64,000 nucleotides of DNA, taken from NCBI GenBank assembly GCA_021791545.1, contig JAJYWL010000016.1, forward strand, positions 9,533 to 73,532, given 5' to 3'. A program made the translations under genes and the position numbers. The notes beneath the pieces are model-generated. The model had not been told where the DNA came from, did not search any database, and saw only the letters and a list, made by a program, of their open reading frames with translations. This document shows, in pieces, positions 53,749-58,266 of the stretch (its first letter is position 1; the number at the start of each line of letters is the position of its first letter). The stretch comes from a bacterium. Lineage in GTDB: Bacteria > Patescibacteriota > Microgenomatia > Levybacterales > UBA12049.

Positions 53749-53840
53749 TGGCGGAGGAGGTGGGATTCGAACCCACGCGAGCCTATTCGACTCAAGGGTT
53801 TAGCAAACCCTCGCAATGGACCATGCTATGCGACTCCTCC
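53749..53840 (-). tRNA. tRNA-Ser(GCT), CCA encoded
   Basis: The reverse complement is GGAGGAGTCGCATAGCATGGTCC...AGGGTTTGCTAAACCCT...GGGTTCGAATCCCACCTCCTCCGCCA. It has a long variable arm and an anticodon loop TTGCTAA. Confidence 0.8.
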
Positions 53841-53889
53841 AGTAAAAAGCATTATAGCCCAAAAAACTGATATAATCTAGTTTGTAGAA

Positions 53890-55680
53890 ATGAGATCAAA
53901 ATACATAAACCTAATCGATACTTTTAAAGTTCCCCTTATAATCTTTCTGGGAATAATCATATATATAGCTTTGGAACTATTGAAACTTCCCCTTCCCGCC
54001 GCGATTGTTGCCGTAACTATCACTCTTTTGGGAAGCTTTAGACTTTTTAAGGAAAGTATCGAAGGATTATTAAAAAAAGACTTTGCCCTTGATTACATAG
54101 CAATTCTTGCAATAGTAGTTTCCCTCATAACAAGAGAATATCTCGTAGCTTCTATTTTAGCCCTTATGATCGAAAGCGGACGAACTCTTGAGGATTACGG
54201 AGTTGCCCAAGCCAAAAAATCTCTTACCAAGCTTGCCGAAAGAATTCCTGATCAGGTAGTCCTATGGGAAAACAAAAAGGCAGGAGCAAAAATAAGCATT
54301 GGCAAGGTTAAAAAAGGAGACATGATCCTTATCCGAAGAGGAGAAGTAATAGGATTAGACGGAATATTGGAATCAGAAGCAGGATTTACGGATGAATCGT
54401 CGCTAACAGGAGAACCCTATACCGTAGAAAAAATAAAAGGAGACCCAATTAGGTCCGGAACAGTAAATGTGGGAGACCCCATTATTATAAAAGTAACAAA
54501 AGTACAAGATGACTCTACATATAAAAAAATAGTTGATCTAGTAAAAAAAGCCCAAGACGAAAAATCCCCTATGGTAAGAATGGCCGATAAATATAGTGGA
54601 GTCTTTACTATAGTGACCTTAGGAATAACAGGATTTGCTTACTTTTTATCAGGTTTTAACCTTGAAAGAGCTCTATCTGTTCTTGTTATAGCAACACCCT
54701 GCCCTCTCATAATCGCAACCCCTATTGCACTTTTAGGAGGAGTTAATTCTGCTTCAAAAAGAAATATTATTGTAAAAAAACTTGCAAGTATAGAAGTTTT
54801 GTCTAGAGCAAAAGCCCTAATCTTTGATAAAACTGGCACTATTACTTTAGGAAAACCAAAAGTAACTGAGTTTGTAAATGAAAGCGACATCAAGGACTCC
54901 GAACTATTAGCAGCATCAGAAGCAATTGAGAGAAATTCTCTTCACCCTTTGGCAAAAGCCATAGTCGACTTTGCAAAAGAAAAGGCAGCAAAGACACTAC
55001 ATGCAGAAAATATAGAAGAAAAGATAGGCCAAGGAATTTCAGGAGTGGTTGACGGAAAAAAGTATAGACTATCAAGACTTGAATCAAAAGAGGGAATGTC
55101 TATAGGAATCTATGACGACGGAAAGCTTTTAGCATTCTTTAGATTTGAAGATGAGATAAAAGAAGAATCAAAAAGCACTATAGAAATACTAAAACAAAGC
55201 GGATTTGAGCTTTTTATTTTTACTGGAGATAAGAAAGAAGCTGCAGAAAAACTCGTGAAAAACCTTAATCTTGACGTACAAATCAAGGCTGAATGCACTC
55301 CTGAGGATAAGCAAGAAGGGATAGAAAAACTTAAAAAAAGCGGAAAAATTACAGCTATGGTAGGAGACGGAATAAACGACGCTCCAGCCCTAGCACTTGC
55401 AGACGTAGGAATGGTTTTCTCAAACGAAGAACAGACAGCAGCCTCAGAAGCAGCAGACATTGTATTCCTTGGGGGAAATTTTTCTCATGTAGTTGAATCA
55501 TTAAACATCGCTAAAAGAACAATAAACATTGCAAAACAAAGTATTTTTGTAGGAATAGGAGTAAGTATCGTGGGAATGGTTTTTGCCTCAGTAGGGCTAA
55601 TTCCTCCTATAGGTGGAGCTTTTATTCAGGAAGCAATAGATGTAGCAGTAATAATAAATGCACTTAGAACAAGTAGGTAA
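53890..55680 (+). CDS. P-type ATPase, P1B-like (CPC motif) cation transporter lacking an N-terminal metal-binding domain
   Basis: DKTGTIT phosphorylation site, TGDK and GDGINDAPALA motifs, and the transmembrane motif ATPCPLIIATP. It is only 596 aa. Confidence 0.75.
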   Translation: MRSKYINLIDTFKVPLIIFLGIIIYIALELLKLPLPAAIVAVTITLLGSFRLFKESIEGLLKKDFALDYIAILAIVVSLITREYLVASILALMIESGRTLEDYGVAQAKKSLTKLAERIPDQVVLWENKKAGAKISIGKVKKGDMILIRRGEVIGLDGILESEAGFTDESSLTGEPYTVEKIKGDPIRSGTVNVGDPIIIKVTKVQDDSTYKKIVDLVKKAQDEKSPMVRMADKYSGVFTIVTLGITGFAYFLSGFNLERALSVLVIATPCPLIIATPIALLGGVNSASKRNIIVKKLASIEVLSRAKALIFDKTGTITLGKPKVTEFVNESDIKDSELLAASEAIERNSLHPLAKAIVDFAKEKAAKTLHAENIEEKIGQGISGVVDGKKYRLSRLESKEGMSIGIYDDGKLLAFFRFEDEIKEESKSTIEILKQSGFELFIFTGDKKEAAEKLVKNLNLDVQIKAECTPEDKQEGIEKLKKSGKITAMVGDGINDAPALALADVGMVFSNEEQTAASEAADIVFLGGNFSHVVESLNIAKRTINIAKQSIFVGIGVSIVGMVFASVGLIPPIGGAFIQEAIDVAVIINALRTSR

Positions 55681-55681
55681 A

Positions 55682-56341
55682 TTATCTTCCTCCCACTAAC
55701 CTTAAAAAGACTATTAGAGCAATATCCATTAAAAGAGGCATTAGAAGAAATAAATCTCCTTTTTTAAAAATTTCCTGTGCATTTTGAGAGGAAAATAAAT
55801 TTCCTAGATATGTAAGTATTGATGGATTAAAAAACAATATTACTAGGAAGATAAGGATAAGAGCGACAAATAATGTAAATGTTCCTTCTATATCTTTTTT
55901 ACTTGAAAACATAGTATTCCCTACCTCTAAAATTACAAAAAAAGAAATTAAATATGCTAGAAAACTATTAAAACTGTTATTTTGAATGTAATAGATTGTT
56001 CCAAAAACAATAACAGAACCAATAATTACAGGAGCAACGCCAATTAATGCCATTCTTATAAAATCAGTCCTTTCTGTTTGGACACTTCCCAACCTCAATC
56101 CTCCATCTACGGTTTTGGGTAAAATATCTATATCTCCAGTTTTTACGAATAAAACTCCTGCTGTAAGAAAATGAGATAGTTCATGAACTATGACTCCGGG
56201 AAGAAAAAATAGGGAAATAAGATAAATTGAAACTTTGGTACTTTTTGTTGCCTTCAAAAATACTTTCATTAATGATCTTGATAAAAGTTTTGCTAGGAAA
56301 AAAAGAAGAATAAATTCAAAAATAAATAAAAGAGGAAACAT
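55682..56341 (-). CDS. Polytopic membrane protein with an HExxH motif (putative intramembrane zinc metalloprotease)
   Basis: VIVHELSHFLTAG lies within a transmembrane helix. About six hydrophobic segments. Confidence 0.45.
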   Translation of the reverse strand: MFPLLFIFEFILLFFLAKLLSRSLMKVFLKATKSTKVSIYLISLFFLPGVIVHELSHFLTAGVLFVKTGDIDILPKTVDGGLRLGSVQTERTDFIRMALIGVAPVIIGSVIVFGTIYYIQNNSFNSFLAYLISFFVILEVGNTMFSSKKDIEGTFTLFVALILIFLVILFFNPSILTYLGNLFSSQNAQEIFKKGDLFLLMPLLMDIALIVFLRLVGGR

Positions 56342-56426
56342 TATTTAAATTCTATCCTTAAAATGTTAGTTAAACAAGTTTTTAAAGTGGCGAATAATCT
56401 TAATTTAAGGTAAAATACAAGCACAC

Positions 56427-56516
56427 GGAGAGGTCGCATAGCGGACTAGTGCAATGGTCTTGAAAACCATCGTGGCAGAAATGCTACCGTGGGTTCGAAT
56501 CCCACCCTCTCCGCCA
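56427..56516 (+). tRNA. tRNA-Ser(TGA), CCA encoded
   Basis: GGAGAGGTCGCATAGCGGACTAGTGCAATGGTCTTGAAAACCATCGTGGCAGAAATGCTACCGTGGGTTCGAATCCCACCCTCTCCGCCA. The anticodon loop is CTTGAAA, with a long variable arm. Confidence 0.8.
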
Positions 56517-56561
56517 CTATCAAAGTTGACTTTAAAAGCTCTCATAATATAAAGTTAAAGT

Positions 56562-57181: not shown

Positions 57182-57192
57182 AGAAGGCTTAA

Positions 57193-57621
57193 TTATACAA
57201 TATCTAACACTATTTTTTCTGCTTCTTCCCAAGCTTTTTTATCAGATTTGTAAGTTATCCTATCCATTACCTTTTCCATTTCTAACCATTCTACGTTTTC
57301 CATTTCCCAATCATGCTTTGTTATATCTCCACCTAATTCTTCCATTACAAAATAATAAACAGTCTTTTTAATTCTTTCCCCATCCATTGCATACCAATAT
57401 TGAATTGGTTCAATTGGTCTTAAGATTTTACCCTTAACTCCCGTTTCTTCTTCTACTTCTCTAACAGCAGTGTCTTCTTTTTTCTCTCCCTTTATATGAT
57501 CACCTATCCTTCCTTTAGGAAAAACCCAACCATGGTGTCCAGAATGCTGAGAAACAAGAATCATAATCTTTTCTTTTTCTTTTTTAAAAACTATTCCACC
57601 TGCTGAAAATTCAAATTTCAT
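57193..57621 (-). CDS. NUDIX hydrolase
   Basis: Nudix box GEKKEDTAVREVEEETGV. Confidence 0.75.
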   Translation of the reverse strand: MKFEFSAGGIVFKKEKEKIMILVSQHSGHHGWVFPKGRIGDHIKGEKKEDTAVREVEEETGVKGKILRPIEPIQYWYAMDGERIKKTVYYFVMEELGGDITKHDWEMENVEWLEMEKVMDRITYKSDKKAWEEAEKIVLDIV

Positions 57622-58083
57622 TTATTTTCCTTTCAAAAATGTTTGTTTTTTAATATAAAATTTCTTCTTTAAGTAATTTTCTAAAACTCCAAAGCTTGGA
57701 AAATATCTTGGGTGTGGAAGTTTATCAAGACTAAACCATTCCCATTCAGTAATTTCATCTGGCTCCATTACTTTTTCCTCACCTTTCCATTTCTTTGCAG
57801 TCATACCTACTGTTACGAAGTGAGCAAACTCATTCTTAAAATTATGTACAGAAATAACTTTAGGATCAATTATAGTAATTCCCGTTTCCTCTTTTACTTC
57901 TCTTATTGCTCCTTCTTCTAAAGTTTCTCCAAAATCAAGCTTACCGCCTGGTAAACACCATTCTCCTGAACTTCTAAATGAAGAATCAGCTTTATCAGGA
58001 TCAGGATGTCGTCTCCCAAGCAAAACTTTCCCGTTCTTTATTAAAATGACTCCTATTCCTGCACCTACTTTTTTCTTATCCAT
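57622..58083 (-). CDS. NUDIX hydrolase, tandem paralog
   Basis: Nudix box GETLEEGAIREVKEETGI. Confidence 0.75.
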   Translation of the reverse strand: MDKKKVGAGIGVILIKNGKVLLGRRHPDPDKADSSFRSSGEWCLPGGKLDFGETLEEGAIREVKEETGITIIDPKVISVHNFKNEFAHFVTVGMTAKKWKGEEKVMEPDEITEWEWFSLDKLPHPRYFPSFGVLENYLKKKFYIKKQTFLKGK

Positions 58084-58101
58084 ATTTTACTTCCTTATGT
58101 G

Positions 58102-58188
58102 CGGAGAGGGTGAGATTTGAACTCACGGTTGCCTTTCGACAACAGCGGTTTTCGAAACCGCCGCACTAGGCCACTATGCGACCTCTCC
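58102..58188 (-). tRNA. tRNA-Ser(CGA)
   Basis: The reverse complement is GGAGAGGTCGCATAGTGGCCTAGTGCGGCGGTTTCGAAAACCGC...GTGAGTTCAAATCTCACCCTCTCCG. The anticodon loop is TTCGAAA, with a long variable arm. Confidence 0.75.
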
Positions 58189-58193
58189 GTTTG

Positions 58194-58266
58194 CGTGCCC
58201 GAGAGGAGTCGAACCTCCAACCGCCTGGACCGCAACCAAGTGTTCTATCCATTGAACTACGGGCAC
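58194..58266 (-). tRNA. tRNA-Arg with the unusual anticodon GCG (as read)
   Basis: The reverse complement is GTGCCCGTAGTTCAATGGATAGAACACTTGGTTGCGGTCCAGGCGGTTGGAGGTTCGACTCCTCTCGGGCACG. A standard 73-nt cloverleaf, with anticodon stem CTTGG/CCAGG (one G-U pair) and loop TTGCGGT. Confidence 0.55.

Follow-up and report, generated by a model that had tools for sequence, protein, structure and literature searches.

Serine tRNA isoacceptor genes interleaved with DUF5673 and Nudix genes in a Levybacteria locus: probably a rearranged form of an old Microgenomates syntenic block

A described comparator for linked serine and arginine tRNA genes is serV-argVYZQ of E. coli, in which a Ser(GCU) gene is followed on the same strand by four Arg(ACG) genes with a spacer of 3 nt and without protein genes, the other Ser isoacceptor genes of that organism lying elsewhere on the chromosome. 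A second comparator is the mixed tRNA/protein operon, of which E. coli thrU-tyrU-glyT-thrT-tufB is an example, together with the "tRNA punctuation" by which mitochondrial mRNAs are released. Here we describe a 4.5-kb neighborhood (positions 53749-58266) within a 64-kb stretch of a Levybacterales genome (contig JAJYWL010000016.1; the whole stretch is called the window), in which four serine tRNA genes with different anticodons and one arginine tRNA gene are interleaved with protein genes, among them a DUF5673 membrane protein gene and two Nudix genes, nudA and nudB. As in serV-argVYZQ, Ser and Arg genes adjoin on one strand, with 4 nt between Arg(GCG) and Ser(CGA), but in the window Arg precedes Ser, the anticodon pair is GCG and CGA, and the full set of four Ser isoacceptors lies close by. 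As in mixed operons, tRNA and protein genes share a strand across gaps too short for separate promoters, with nudB-nudA between Ser(CGA) and Ser(GGA), though here the mRNA is bordered by a tRNA at either end, the tRNAs are isoacceptors for a single amino acid, and co-transcription is a reading of the spacing. Arrays of tRNA genes, which Tran et al. (2016, PMC4758250) set at 20 or more genes at a density of at least 2 per kb, are also local concentrations with synteny conserved among relatives, but the five genes in 4.5 kb (1.1 per kb) of the window, without redundancy or a sign of mobility, fall short of an array in that sense. The literature that we searched held no description of a Ser-tRNA cluster in bacteria of the candidate phyla radiation (CPR), and the cluster is a previously undescribed case of a known class of feature, the conserved tRNA-gene neighborhood or mixed operon. 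We hold it to be probable that it is the Levybacteria version of an ancient Microgenomates syntenic block that has been locally rearranged, and that the four Ser genes are old, vertically inherited paralogues.

ARAGORN calls nine tRNA genes in the window, and the five in the neighborhood are recovered by both ARAGORN and the Rfam tRNA model (RF00005): tRNA-Ser(GCT) at 53749-53840 (minus strand), tRNA-Ser(TGA) at 56427-56516 (plus strand), tRNA-Ser(GGA) at 57094-57181 (minus strand), tRNA-Ser(CGA) at 58101-58188 (minus strand), and tRNA-Arg(GCG) at 58193-58266 (minus strand), which lies 4 nt upstream of Ser(CGA). The Rfam scores are 52.6-61.4 bits for the five and 52.6-56.7 bits for the four Ser genes, against a gathering score of 29. 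A preliminary description of the stretch, made from its letters, had named these same genes at these coordinates and had credited the Ser genes with a long variable arm and with an encoded CCA in GCT and TGA only, and all of this is borne out: the Ser genes are 88-92 nt long, within the range of class II tRNA-Ser (~85-93 nt), and the G73 discriminator that follows the 7-bp acceptor stem in all four (in Ser(GGA), by reading of the sequence) is followed by CCA in Ser(GCT) and Ser(TGA), by "CAT" in Ser(GGA) and by "CAC" in Ser(CGA). The acceptor sequence said to be common to them, GGAGRGGTCGCATAG, is exact in three, with one mismatch in Ser(GCT) (GGAGGAG...). ARAGORN found no further Ser tRNA in the 64 kb, and by wobble rules the four anticodons are able to read all six Ser codons. 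For a genome of ~1 Mb, we estimate the chance of four genes falling within 4.44 kb at ~4 x (4.44/1000)^3, or ~3.5e-7, and comparable clustering of Ser tRNA genes is found in dozens of species; the cluster is genuine and markedly non-random.

Related loci were gathered with the DUF5673 protein encoded between Ser(TGA) and Ser(GGA), which has 1434 homologues, the named ones being from Candidatus Levybacteria (CPR/Patescibacteria), and which is 54-77% identical across Levybacteria. A scan with one genome per species gave 192 matching species, from which 80 loci (labelled L0xx; the named ones all Levybacteria or Patescibacteria) were kept and drawn as signed gene maps with tblastn and ARAGORN. Counts of the full set use 20-kb loci, namely the 32 from Levybacteria whose flanks reach at least 9 kb upstream and at least 6.9 kb downstream, and 26 of these hold all four Ser anticodons, one copy each, over spans of 1.7-11.5 kb, of which the 4.44 kb of the window is typical. 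The left part that recurs consists of a 593-aa NHL-like protein, smpB, the transfer-messenger RNA (tmRNA), comFC, Ser(GCT), in some loci an ATPase, Ser(TGA), and DUF5673, and the right part runs from DUF5673 through Arg(GCG)-Ser(CGA), in some loci Arg(CCG), a Nudix gene, and Ser(GGA) to a 696-aa membrane protein and a 1099-aa protein. Arg(GCG) is followed collinearly by Ser(CGA) in 65 of 69 loci, NudA adjoins Ser(GGA) in 57 of 58, and the DUF5673 gene is flanked by Ser or Arg tRNAs in nearly every locus, with median distances to the nearest tRNA of 129 nt on the upstream side and 66 nt on the downstream side.

More distant DUF5673 relatives were reached by a library search (26-46% identity) and then by profile searches with two sets, among whose matches are proteins named Beckwith-, Shapiro-, Gottesman-, and Daviesbacteria; all loci sampled are from Microgenomates. 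Eight loci of Beckwith-, Gottesman-, and Daviesbacteria type, including one in the complete 1.05-Mb CP011210.1, have DUF5673 proteins 30-40% identical and served as the outgroup. In all eight, the order is SpoIID, DUF5657, a large protein, smpB, (tmRNA), comFC, Ser(GCT)/Ser(TGA), and DUF5673, followed by Arg(GCG), Ser(CGA), Arg(CCG), (Nudix), and Ser(GGA), with every Ser anticodon present as a single copy, nearly all genes on one strand, and dnaG-rpoD downstream in seven of the eight. The arrangement is therefore not peculiar to one genome, being present in 26 of 32 Levybacteria and in 8 of 8 other Microgenomates loci. The preliminary description had proposed a recombination hot spot and had named beforehand, among the outcomes that would count against it, conservation of the interleaved arrangement in distant relatives; the comparison of synteny found just this, with DUF5673 and Nudix genes between the tRNAs, and because the arrangement is kept at this distance the layout is ancestral at least to the class Microgenomatia, as a block syntenic at the level of orders or above.

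The ancestral order would have been comFC, Ser(GCT), Ser(TGA), DUF5673, Arg(GCG), Ser(CGA), Arg(CCG), Nudix, and Ser(GGA), all in one direction downstream of smpB and the tmRNA gene, and probably read as one or a few mixed tRNA/mRNA transcription units. In the lineage of the window, the module Arg(GCG)-Ser(CGA)-Nudix-Ser(GGA) would then have been inverted as a unit; the Ser(GCT) cassette would have flipped so that it now lies 1 nt upstream of comFC; the slot between Ser(GCT) and Ser(TGA) would have gained a P1B ATPase and an HExxH protein as cargo, and a second Nudix gene would likewise have come in; and Arg(CCG) would have been lost or moved. Since the closest relatives of the window (DUF5673 74% and 69% identical) have the collinear order, the inverted module and the flipped Ser(GCT) are taken to be derived. 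Clustering most likely persists by inheritance, the rearrangements being short-range, with a dedicated function unneeded. Several points weigh against this account: the cluster is split in 6 of the 32 Levybacteria loci, so that the ancestral state is a parsimony estimate from the eight outgroup loci; the trees on which flips are counted (below) were built on about 860 aligned residues; a promoter scan found 21 sites against 17 +/- 3.6 in shuffles, which is no enrichment; and co-transcription and processing are inferred purely from spacing and consensus matches. As it stands, what seemed an oddity of a single genome would be a landmark inherited across a whole class of small-genome, uncultured bacteria, with all four Ser isoacceptor genes in one place and interleaved with a DUF5673 and a Nudix gene, and it could serve as a synteny marker to bin or annotate genomes of Microgenomates, as a natural data set, about 90 species in size, on linked tRNAs that flip, are replaced, and shift anticodons, and as a candidate tRNA-punctuated operon in CPR bacteria. 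The feature in the window is ordinary in kind and modestly interesting; the cluster itself reveals no new mechanism, and its interest lies mainly in the comparative dynamics among relatives.

An alternative origin for the cluster is recent local duplication and divergence, in which the four Ser genes would have arisen from each other at this site and in this lineage, and the preliminary description had argued for it from arms that it took to be near-identical. The arms are not: aligned pairwise, the four genes are 67-82% identical, with a T arm common to Ser(GCT) and Ser(TGA) and a variable arm common to Ser(GGA) and Ser(CGA). When 265 Ser tRNA genes from related loci were compared, the nearest neighbor of 257 had the same anticodon, and the best identities of the window genes to same-anticodon genes of other species were 95% for GCT, 99% for TGA (L011 and L012), 91% for GGA, and 94% for CGA (L017). 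Identities of 91-99% to other species against 67-82% to neighbors rule out a recent local duplication, and the four anticodons already stand at the same positions in other Microgenomates orders. What would favor duplication is that all four window genes have an unusual D-arm type, ...GTCGCATAG, that GGA and CGA have an identical variable arm and, at 81-82% identity, are in the top 3% of same-genome pairs, and that a few same-genome pairs elsewhere reach 85-90%, for example CGA/TGA in L009. Similarly, the D-arm body type "TCGCATAG" is patchily distributed over anticodon classes, with 15 of 45 genomes wholly of that type (all-A), as the window is, and 14 other patterns. Identity between classes within the same genome shows a slight but significant excess, at 0.684 against 0.674 when permuted (0 of 500 permutations reach 0.684), which, in being barely above the permuted value, counts against duplication. 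The presence or absence of an encoded CCA was also tried as the mark of duplicate pairs and rejected, CCA status being mixed in every anticodon class (in Ser(TGA), for example, 15 genes with CCA and 52 without). We judge it very improbable that the four genes arose by recent duplication here; the genes are orthologous to same-anticodon genes elsewhere, and not independent duplicates.

Over longer times, Ser genes do turn over, as the patchy D-arm type, the slight excess of same-genome identity, and the exceptions to the nearest-neighbor rule show. These eight exceptions are mostly swaps between TGA and CGA. In L009, L010/L030, L018, L080, L022, and L035, Ser(TGA) and Ser(CGA) are apparently exchanged, the gene at the CGA position being closest to TGA genes and vice versa, and in L018 and L080 the TGA and CGA anticodons are found in swapped positions. 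Seryl-tRNA synthetase (SerRS) does not read the anticodon, and shifts of this kind are neutral for amino-acid identity. Saks et al. in 1998 reportedly described tRNA anticodon shift, or remolding, in E. coli. Anticodon shifts and remolding are also known in animals (PMC4981973). The exchanges seen in relatives, recognized by sequence similarity, in which a gene at the Ser(CGA) position is at times closest to Ser(TGA) genes and would differ by a one-base change, are consistent with single-base anticodon shifts at position 34, whereas no such shift is evident in the four Ser genes of the window itself.

A fifth Ser tRNA, with the anticodon ACT (A34), is present in relatives and not in the window (L022 7868-7955, L026 7901-7988, L047 12350-12435, L065 9690-9777, L091 9827-9912, L096 9007-9092, and about 10 other loci). 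Its usual place is beside Ser(GCT) or Ser(TGA). The copies, which are ~83% identical to each other, have a highly conserved anticodon arm (GCGGTTTACTAAACCGC), and this tRNA occurs in Levybacteria and in one Gottesmanbacteria locus. In bacteria, A34 tRNAs other than Arg(ACG) are unusual. If its A34 is deaminated, this tRNA would add the reading of AGA to that of AGY.

One way to draw these observations together is to regard the Ser isoacceptor neighborhood as a long-lived nursery in Microgenomates, a site of tRNA turnover through duplication and loss of cassettes, anticodon shifts, and the origin of new isoacceptors. Cassettes of a promoter plus a tRNA would be duplicated in either orientation and then lost, giving the appearance of in-place flips; neighboring Ser genes would recombine with or replace each other through one-base shifts between TGA and CGA, which would be tolerated because SerRS ignores the anticodon; and new isoacceptors such as the A34 tRNA-Ser(ACU) of about 15 relatives would arise there. 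If this were true, the locus would be a bacterial counterpart to the duplication-loss and remolding dynamics of mitochondrial tRNA genes, and we offer it as a tentative and rather unlikely proposal.

The arrangement of the block in Levybacteria is far from uniform, which bears on the suggestion of a recombination hot spot. Taken relative to DUF5673, Ser(TGA) and the Arg(GCG) module are each found in both orientations, and all four combinations occur, in 12, 10, 9, and 7 Levybacteria loci, and on neighbor-joining trees of four concatenated proteins each orientation character requires at least 9-12 changes in all 100 bootstrap replicates, near the expectation for random labels. Because the Arg-Ser and Nudix-Ser(GGA) adjacencies are nearly unbroken, the Arg-Ser-(Arg)-Nudix-Ser module moves as a unit. 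Where Ser(TGA) is flipped (the window and L017 compared with L011, L012, and L019), its -10 box and encoded CCA travel along with it, and a flip by recombination in an acceptor-stem inverted repeat was rejected since the flipped unit is the promoter plus the tRNA. The flips fit small inversions, or inverted duplication followed by loss, and same-anticodon pairs in opposite orientation, 74-83% identical, are found for Ser(TGA) in L071 and for Ser(ACT) in L050.

Fragments of tRNA genes, 3' ends of 19-53 nt and 5' ends of 20-33 nt, lie near intact genes in about 15 relatives (among others, L012 11569-11621 and 11919-11939, L077 11689-11741, L067 11655-11673, L011 2056-2088, and L078 2400-2420). 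They stand tens to hundreds of nt from intact Ser or Arg tRNA genes, and they look like att-type scars or the remnants of degraded duplicates. Separately, L015, L032, and L043 each have a full-length Ser(GCT) that ARAGORN does not call.

Cargo between the tRNAs differs by species: an ATPase and an HExxH protein in the window, His_Phos, VIT1, or an ABC transporter in L096/L097, and a methylase with an HNH endonuclease in L088. In the slot between Ser(GCT) and Ser(TGA) (53890-56341 in the window, 7581-9801 in L096, 7197-9779 in L097), the cargo differs among close relatives and is often a metal transporter, VIT1 in L096 being an instance. The P1B ATPase occupies the slot in the window and in about 12 other species.

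A locus at which tRNAs act as breakpoints or attachment sites for recombination and integration would account for orientation combinations that are all common and changes that are near random, for slot cargo that differs even between closest relatives, and for the end fragments and opposite-orientation pairs. Genomic islands at tRNA att sites offer the known parallel, with variable cargo beside tRNAs in the window and tRNA 3'-end direct repeats in relatives, but the window has no integrase, att-like repeat, or compositional island. Indeed, no extra copy of a Ser 5' or 3' end within 3 mismatches and no tRNA fragment was found in the window, no integrase, transposase, or phage gene was found among the ten open reading frames scanned with Pfam, and no compositional anomaly was found in the cluster (GC 0.34-0.36 against about 0.38), so that an integrase and a tRNA 3'-end repeat bounding the cargo, by which an integrative island would be recognized, are not seen there. 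Moreover, contigs from other samples on which the DUF5673 protein is identical, up to 0.2-1 Mb long, are arranged as the window is, with gene order unchanged, and, the species compared being far apart (proteins 55-75% identical), a large number of flips need not mean a high rate. The hot-spot idea is thus partly right as a long-term property of the locus, with flips, cargo turnover, fragments, and anticodon swaps in relatives on its side and the conservation of the interleaved layout in distant relatives against it; taken as an explanation, it is a reasonable possibility to which we give somewhat less than even weight, and it would complement the ancestral-block reading and not replace it.

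Selection for co-orientation with replication was considered as a driver of the flips and rejected, GC skew of the flanks not predicting tRNA strand (Spearman rho 0.22, p = 0.16). The outgroup loci have positive GC skew and all-plus tRNAs. In the Beckwithbacteria locus L087 (CP011210.1, positions 2278-22841 of 1,049,888), the block lies within ~23 kb of coordinate 1, where its GC skew is strongly positive and its tRNAs are all encoded on the plus strand, and it may adjoin the replication origin and run in the direction of replication. The window differs, with negative skew around the cluster and with most cluster tRNAs on the minus strand.

It is also conceivable that the clustering is held by selection, the Ser and Arg tRNAs, DUF5673, and the Nudix protein forming a functional unit for co-regulated Ser decoding or for tRNA/RNA metabolism. 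The genes do remain within a few kb despite many rearrangements, the Nudix gene is hardly ever parted from Ser(GGA), and DUF5673 is unusually conserved across Levybacteria and almost always closely flanked by tRNAs. However, the flanking genes smpB, comFC, and that of the 696-aa protein are kept equally well, so that general synteny is enough; the split clusters of the six Levybacteria loci have apparently not lost the other genes; DUF5673 has its own predicted promoter; and the Nudix proteins match generic MutT-like NCBIfam models only, all below cut-off. We therefore regard a selected unit as unlikely. Even less credible, and in our view close to negligible, is a tRNA island that is mobile or came from a phage: tRNA-Ser genes are frequent in phages, and blastn gave weak matches to phage tRNA-Ser genes, but these covered 5% of the query at no more than 80% identity, which is generic tRNA similarity, and the block lacks integrase and phage genes, is chromosomal and syntenic across orders, and has single-copy anticodons. 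A phage or island origin was rejected on these matches, the phage collection having given nothing beyond generic tRNA similarity.

Under the reading of an ancestral block, part of the neighborhood would still behave as an operon. The gaps between Arg(GCG), Ser(CGA), nudB, nudA, and Ser(GGA), all on the minus strand, are 4, 17, 0, and 11 nt, too small for promoters or terminators, as expected of a mixed tRNA/mRNA operon, and the module is intact and collinear in relatives. Its sole promoter-like site is TTGTTA-17-TAAAAT (58279..58307, minus strand; promoter scan), upstream of Arg(GCG), which is the first gene of the minus-strand unit. Given these gaps and the lone upstream site, a single transcript is the simplest arrangement, and Arg(GCG)-Ser(CGA)-nudB-nudA-Ser(GGA) is most likely one tRNA-punctuated transcript, which would be ~1.17 kb long. 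Excision of the tRNAs by RNase P and RNase Z would set free the Nudix mRNA, whose leader, left after Ser(CGA), has an AAGGA Shine-Dalgarno-like element, and the CCA-less Ser(GGA) and Ser(CGA) would be finished by the CCA-adding enzyme. Separate promoters would serve Arg(GCG), Ser(GCT)-comFC, Ser(TGA), and DUF5673. For Ser(GCT), a TATAAT lies 10 nt upstream (53856-53851), and the likely ATG of comFC, at 53747 by reading of the sequence, is 1 nt past the encoded CCA, which suggests a common Ser(GCT)-comFC transcript. Upstream of Ser(TGA) is the promoter-like TTTAAGGTAAAATACAAG (56404..56421, plus strand), the same motif standing before Arg(GCG), where the promoter-like site overlaps it, so that the two form an 18-nt inverted repeat (with 58274-58291) that is 94% complementary. 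The DUF5673 gene has a putative sigma-70-like promoter, TTGACT-18-TAAAGT (56526..56555, plus strand), which ends 6 nt before its ATG, and the TTGACT...-10...ATG layout recurs in L011, L012, L017, and L019, whatever the orientation of the tRNA. At the other end of this gene, the convergent Ser(GGA) has its 3' end 1 nt from the DUF5673 stop, and its antisense T-arm hairpin followed by a T run scores as terminator-like for DUF5673.

The protein genes named in the preliminary description as interleaved with the tRNAs (comFC, ATPase, HExxH protein, membrane protein, and two Nudix genes) are identified as such with Pfam and NCBIfam, save that comFC falls beyond the tRNA span. On its left, the conserved block includes smpB (52226..52669, plus strand; Pfam SmpB E = 1e-46), which stands beside the cluster in most related loci, and the tmRNA gene ssrA (52720..53083, plus strand; Rfam RF00023, 103.8 bits), which ARAGORN does not call in the window, which has a promoter-like TTGACT-17-TATACT before it (52680-52708; promoter scan), and which adjoins smpB in all 10 related loci where ARAGORN calls it. 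The comFC-like gene (53112..53747, minus strand) has Pfam DZR_2 and PRTase matches, and its protein scores 59.5 bits against the ComF family TIGR00201, below cut-off. The variable cargo of the Ser(GCT)/Ser(TGA) slot comprises the heavy-metal P1B-type ATPase (53890..55680, plus strand; TIGR01525 473 bits, above cut-off) and a 219-aa HExxH membrane protein with an HELSH motif (55682..56341, minus strand), for which there was no Pfam or NCBIfam match and no tblastn match in 80+ related loci, so that, of the loci compared, the window alone has it. The protein gene that forms the invariant core of the cluster encodes the DUF5673 membrane protein (56562..57092, plus strand), with 26.1 bits against a Pfam DUF5673 cut-off of 26.7. 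Of the two Nudix genes, nudA, a Nudix hydrolase (57193..57621, minus strand; Pfam NUDIX 1.5e-19), is the conserved partner of Ser(GGA), and nudB (57622..58083, minus strand; Pfam NUDIX 2.5e-23) is a rare extra copy with weak tblastn matches only in L029 and L061 among related loci. The 696-aa membrane protein (58351..60441, plus strand) is the conserved right flank in Levybacteria, with 29-45% identity by tblastn beside the cluster in many loci and no match to a Pfam or NCBIfam family, and the region encoding its C-terminus (60214-60378, plus strand) is a 54-nt tandem repeat of Ala/Gly/Pro-rich units (AAGGGTPPPPPPAAGG...).

The CGN-box Arg anticodon in the window, and likewise in all related loci, is GCG, not the usual ACG (inosine) of bacteria, and Arg(CCG) stands beside Arg(GCG) in many relatives. 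From the GCG and CCG anticodons, this suggests that these lineages do without TadA-type A34 editing of tRNA-Arg. Elsewhere in the window is a tRNA-Ile(TAT) (29402-29474, minus strand; Rfam 74.3 bits), whose anticodon implies a decoding of AUA that would not involve a lysidine-modified CAT tRNA, a situation uncommon among bacteria. Two divergent tRNA-Met(CAT) genes lie 66 nt apart (27079-27153, minus strand, and 27220-27289, plus strand), one of them only 70 nt long and below the Rfam gathering score. In a subgroup of Levybacteria (L063, L067, L073, L078, L079, and L085), a 70-72-nt and a 74-76-nt tRNA-Met flank DUF5673/Arg/Ser(CGA)/Ser(GGA) and replace Ser(TGA) and Ser(GCT).

At the start of the window, a 23S rRNA gene (1-2533, minus strand) begins at 2533 and near 560 breaks off after ...CCAGTAAACGGCAGCAGTAACTATAA into non-rRNA sequence. 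The insert, which continues past the start of the window, codes for a homing endonuclease of LAGLIDADG type (LAGFVEGEGSF). That the gene lacks ~800 nt, as its Rfam coordinates (411-2533) might indicate, was rejected, the gene being interrupted near 560 by an intron with the LAGLIDADG reading frame; the Rfam call of "complete 1-2925 in 2123 nt" comes from forcing the alignment, and the interruption is an rRNA intron. Introns in rRNA are known for CPR bacteria. A tRNA-Ala(TGC) lies upstream of the 23S gene, and the window holds no 16S or 5S gene. Finally, an AdoCbl-II (cobalamin) riboswitch aptamer is found at 33506-33579 (minus strand), with 41.6 bits against a gathering score of 36.5.

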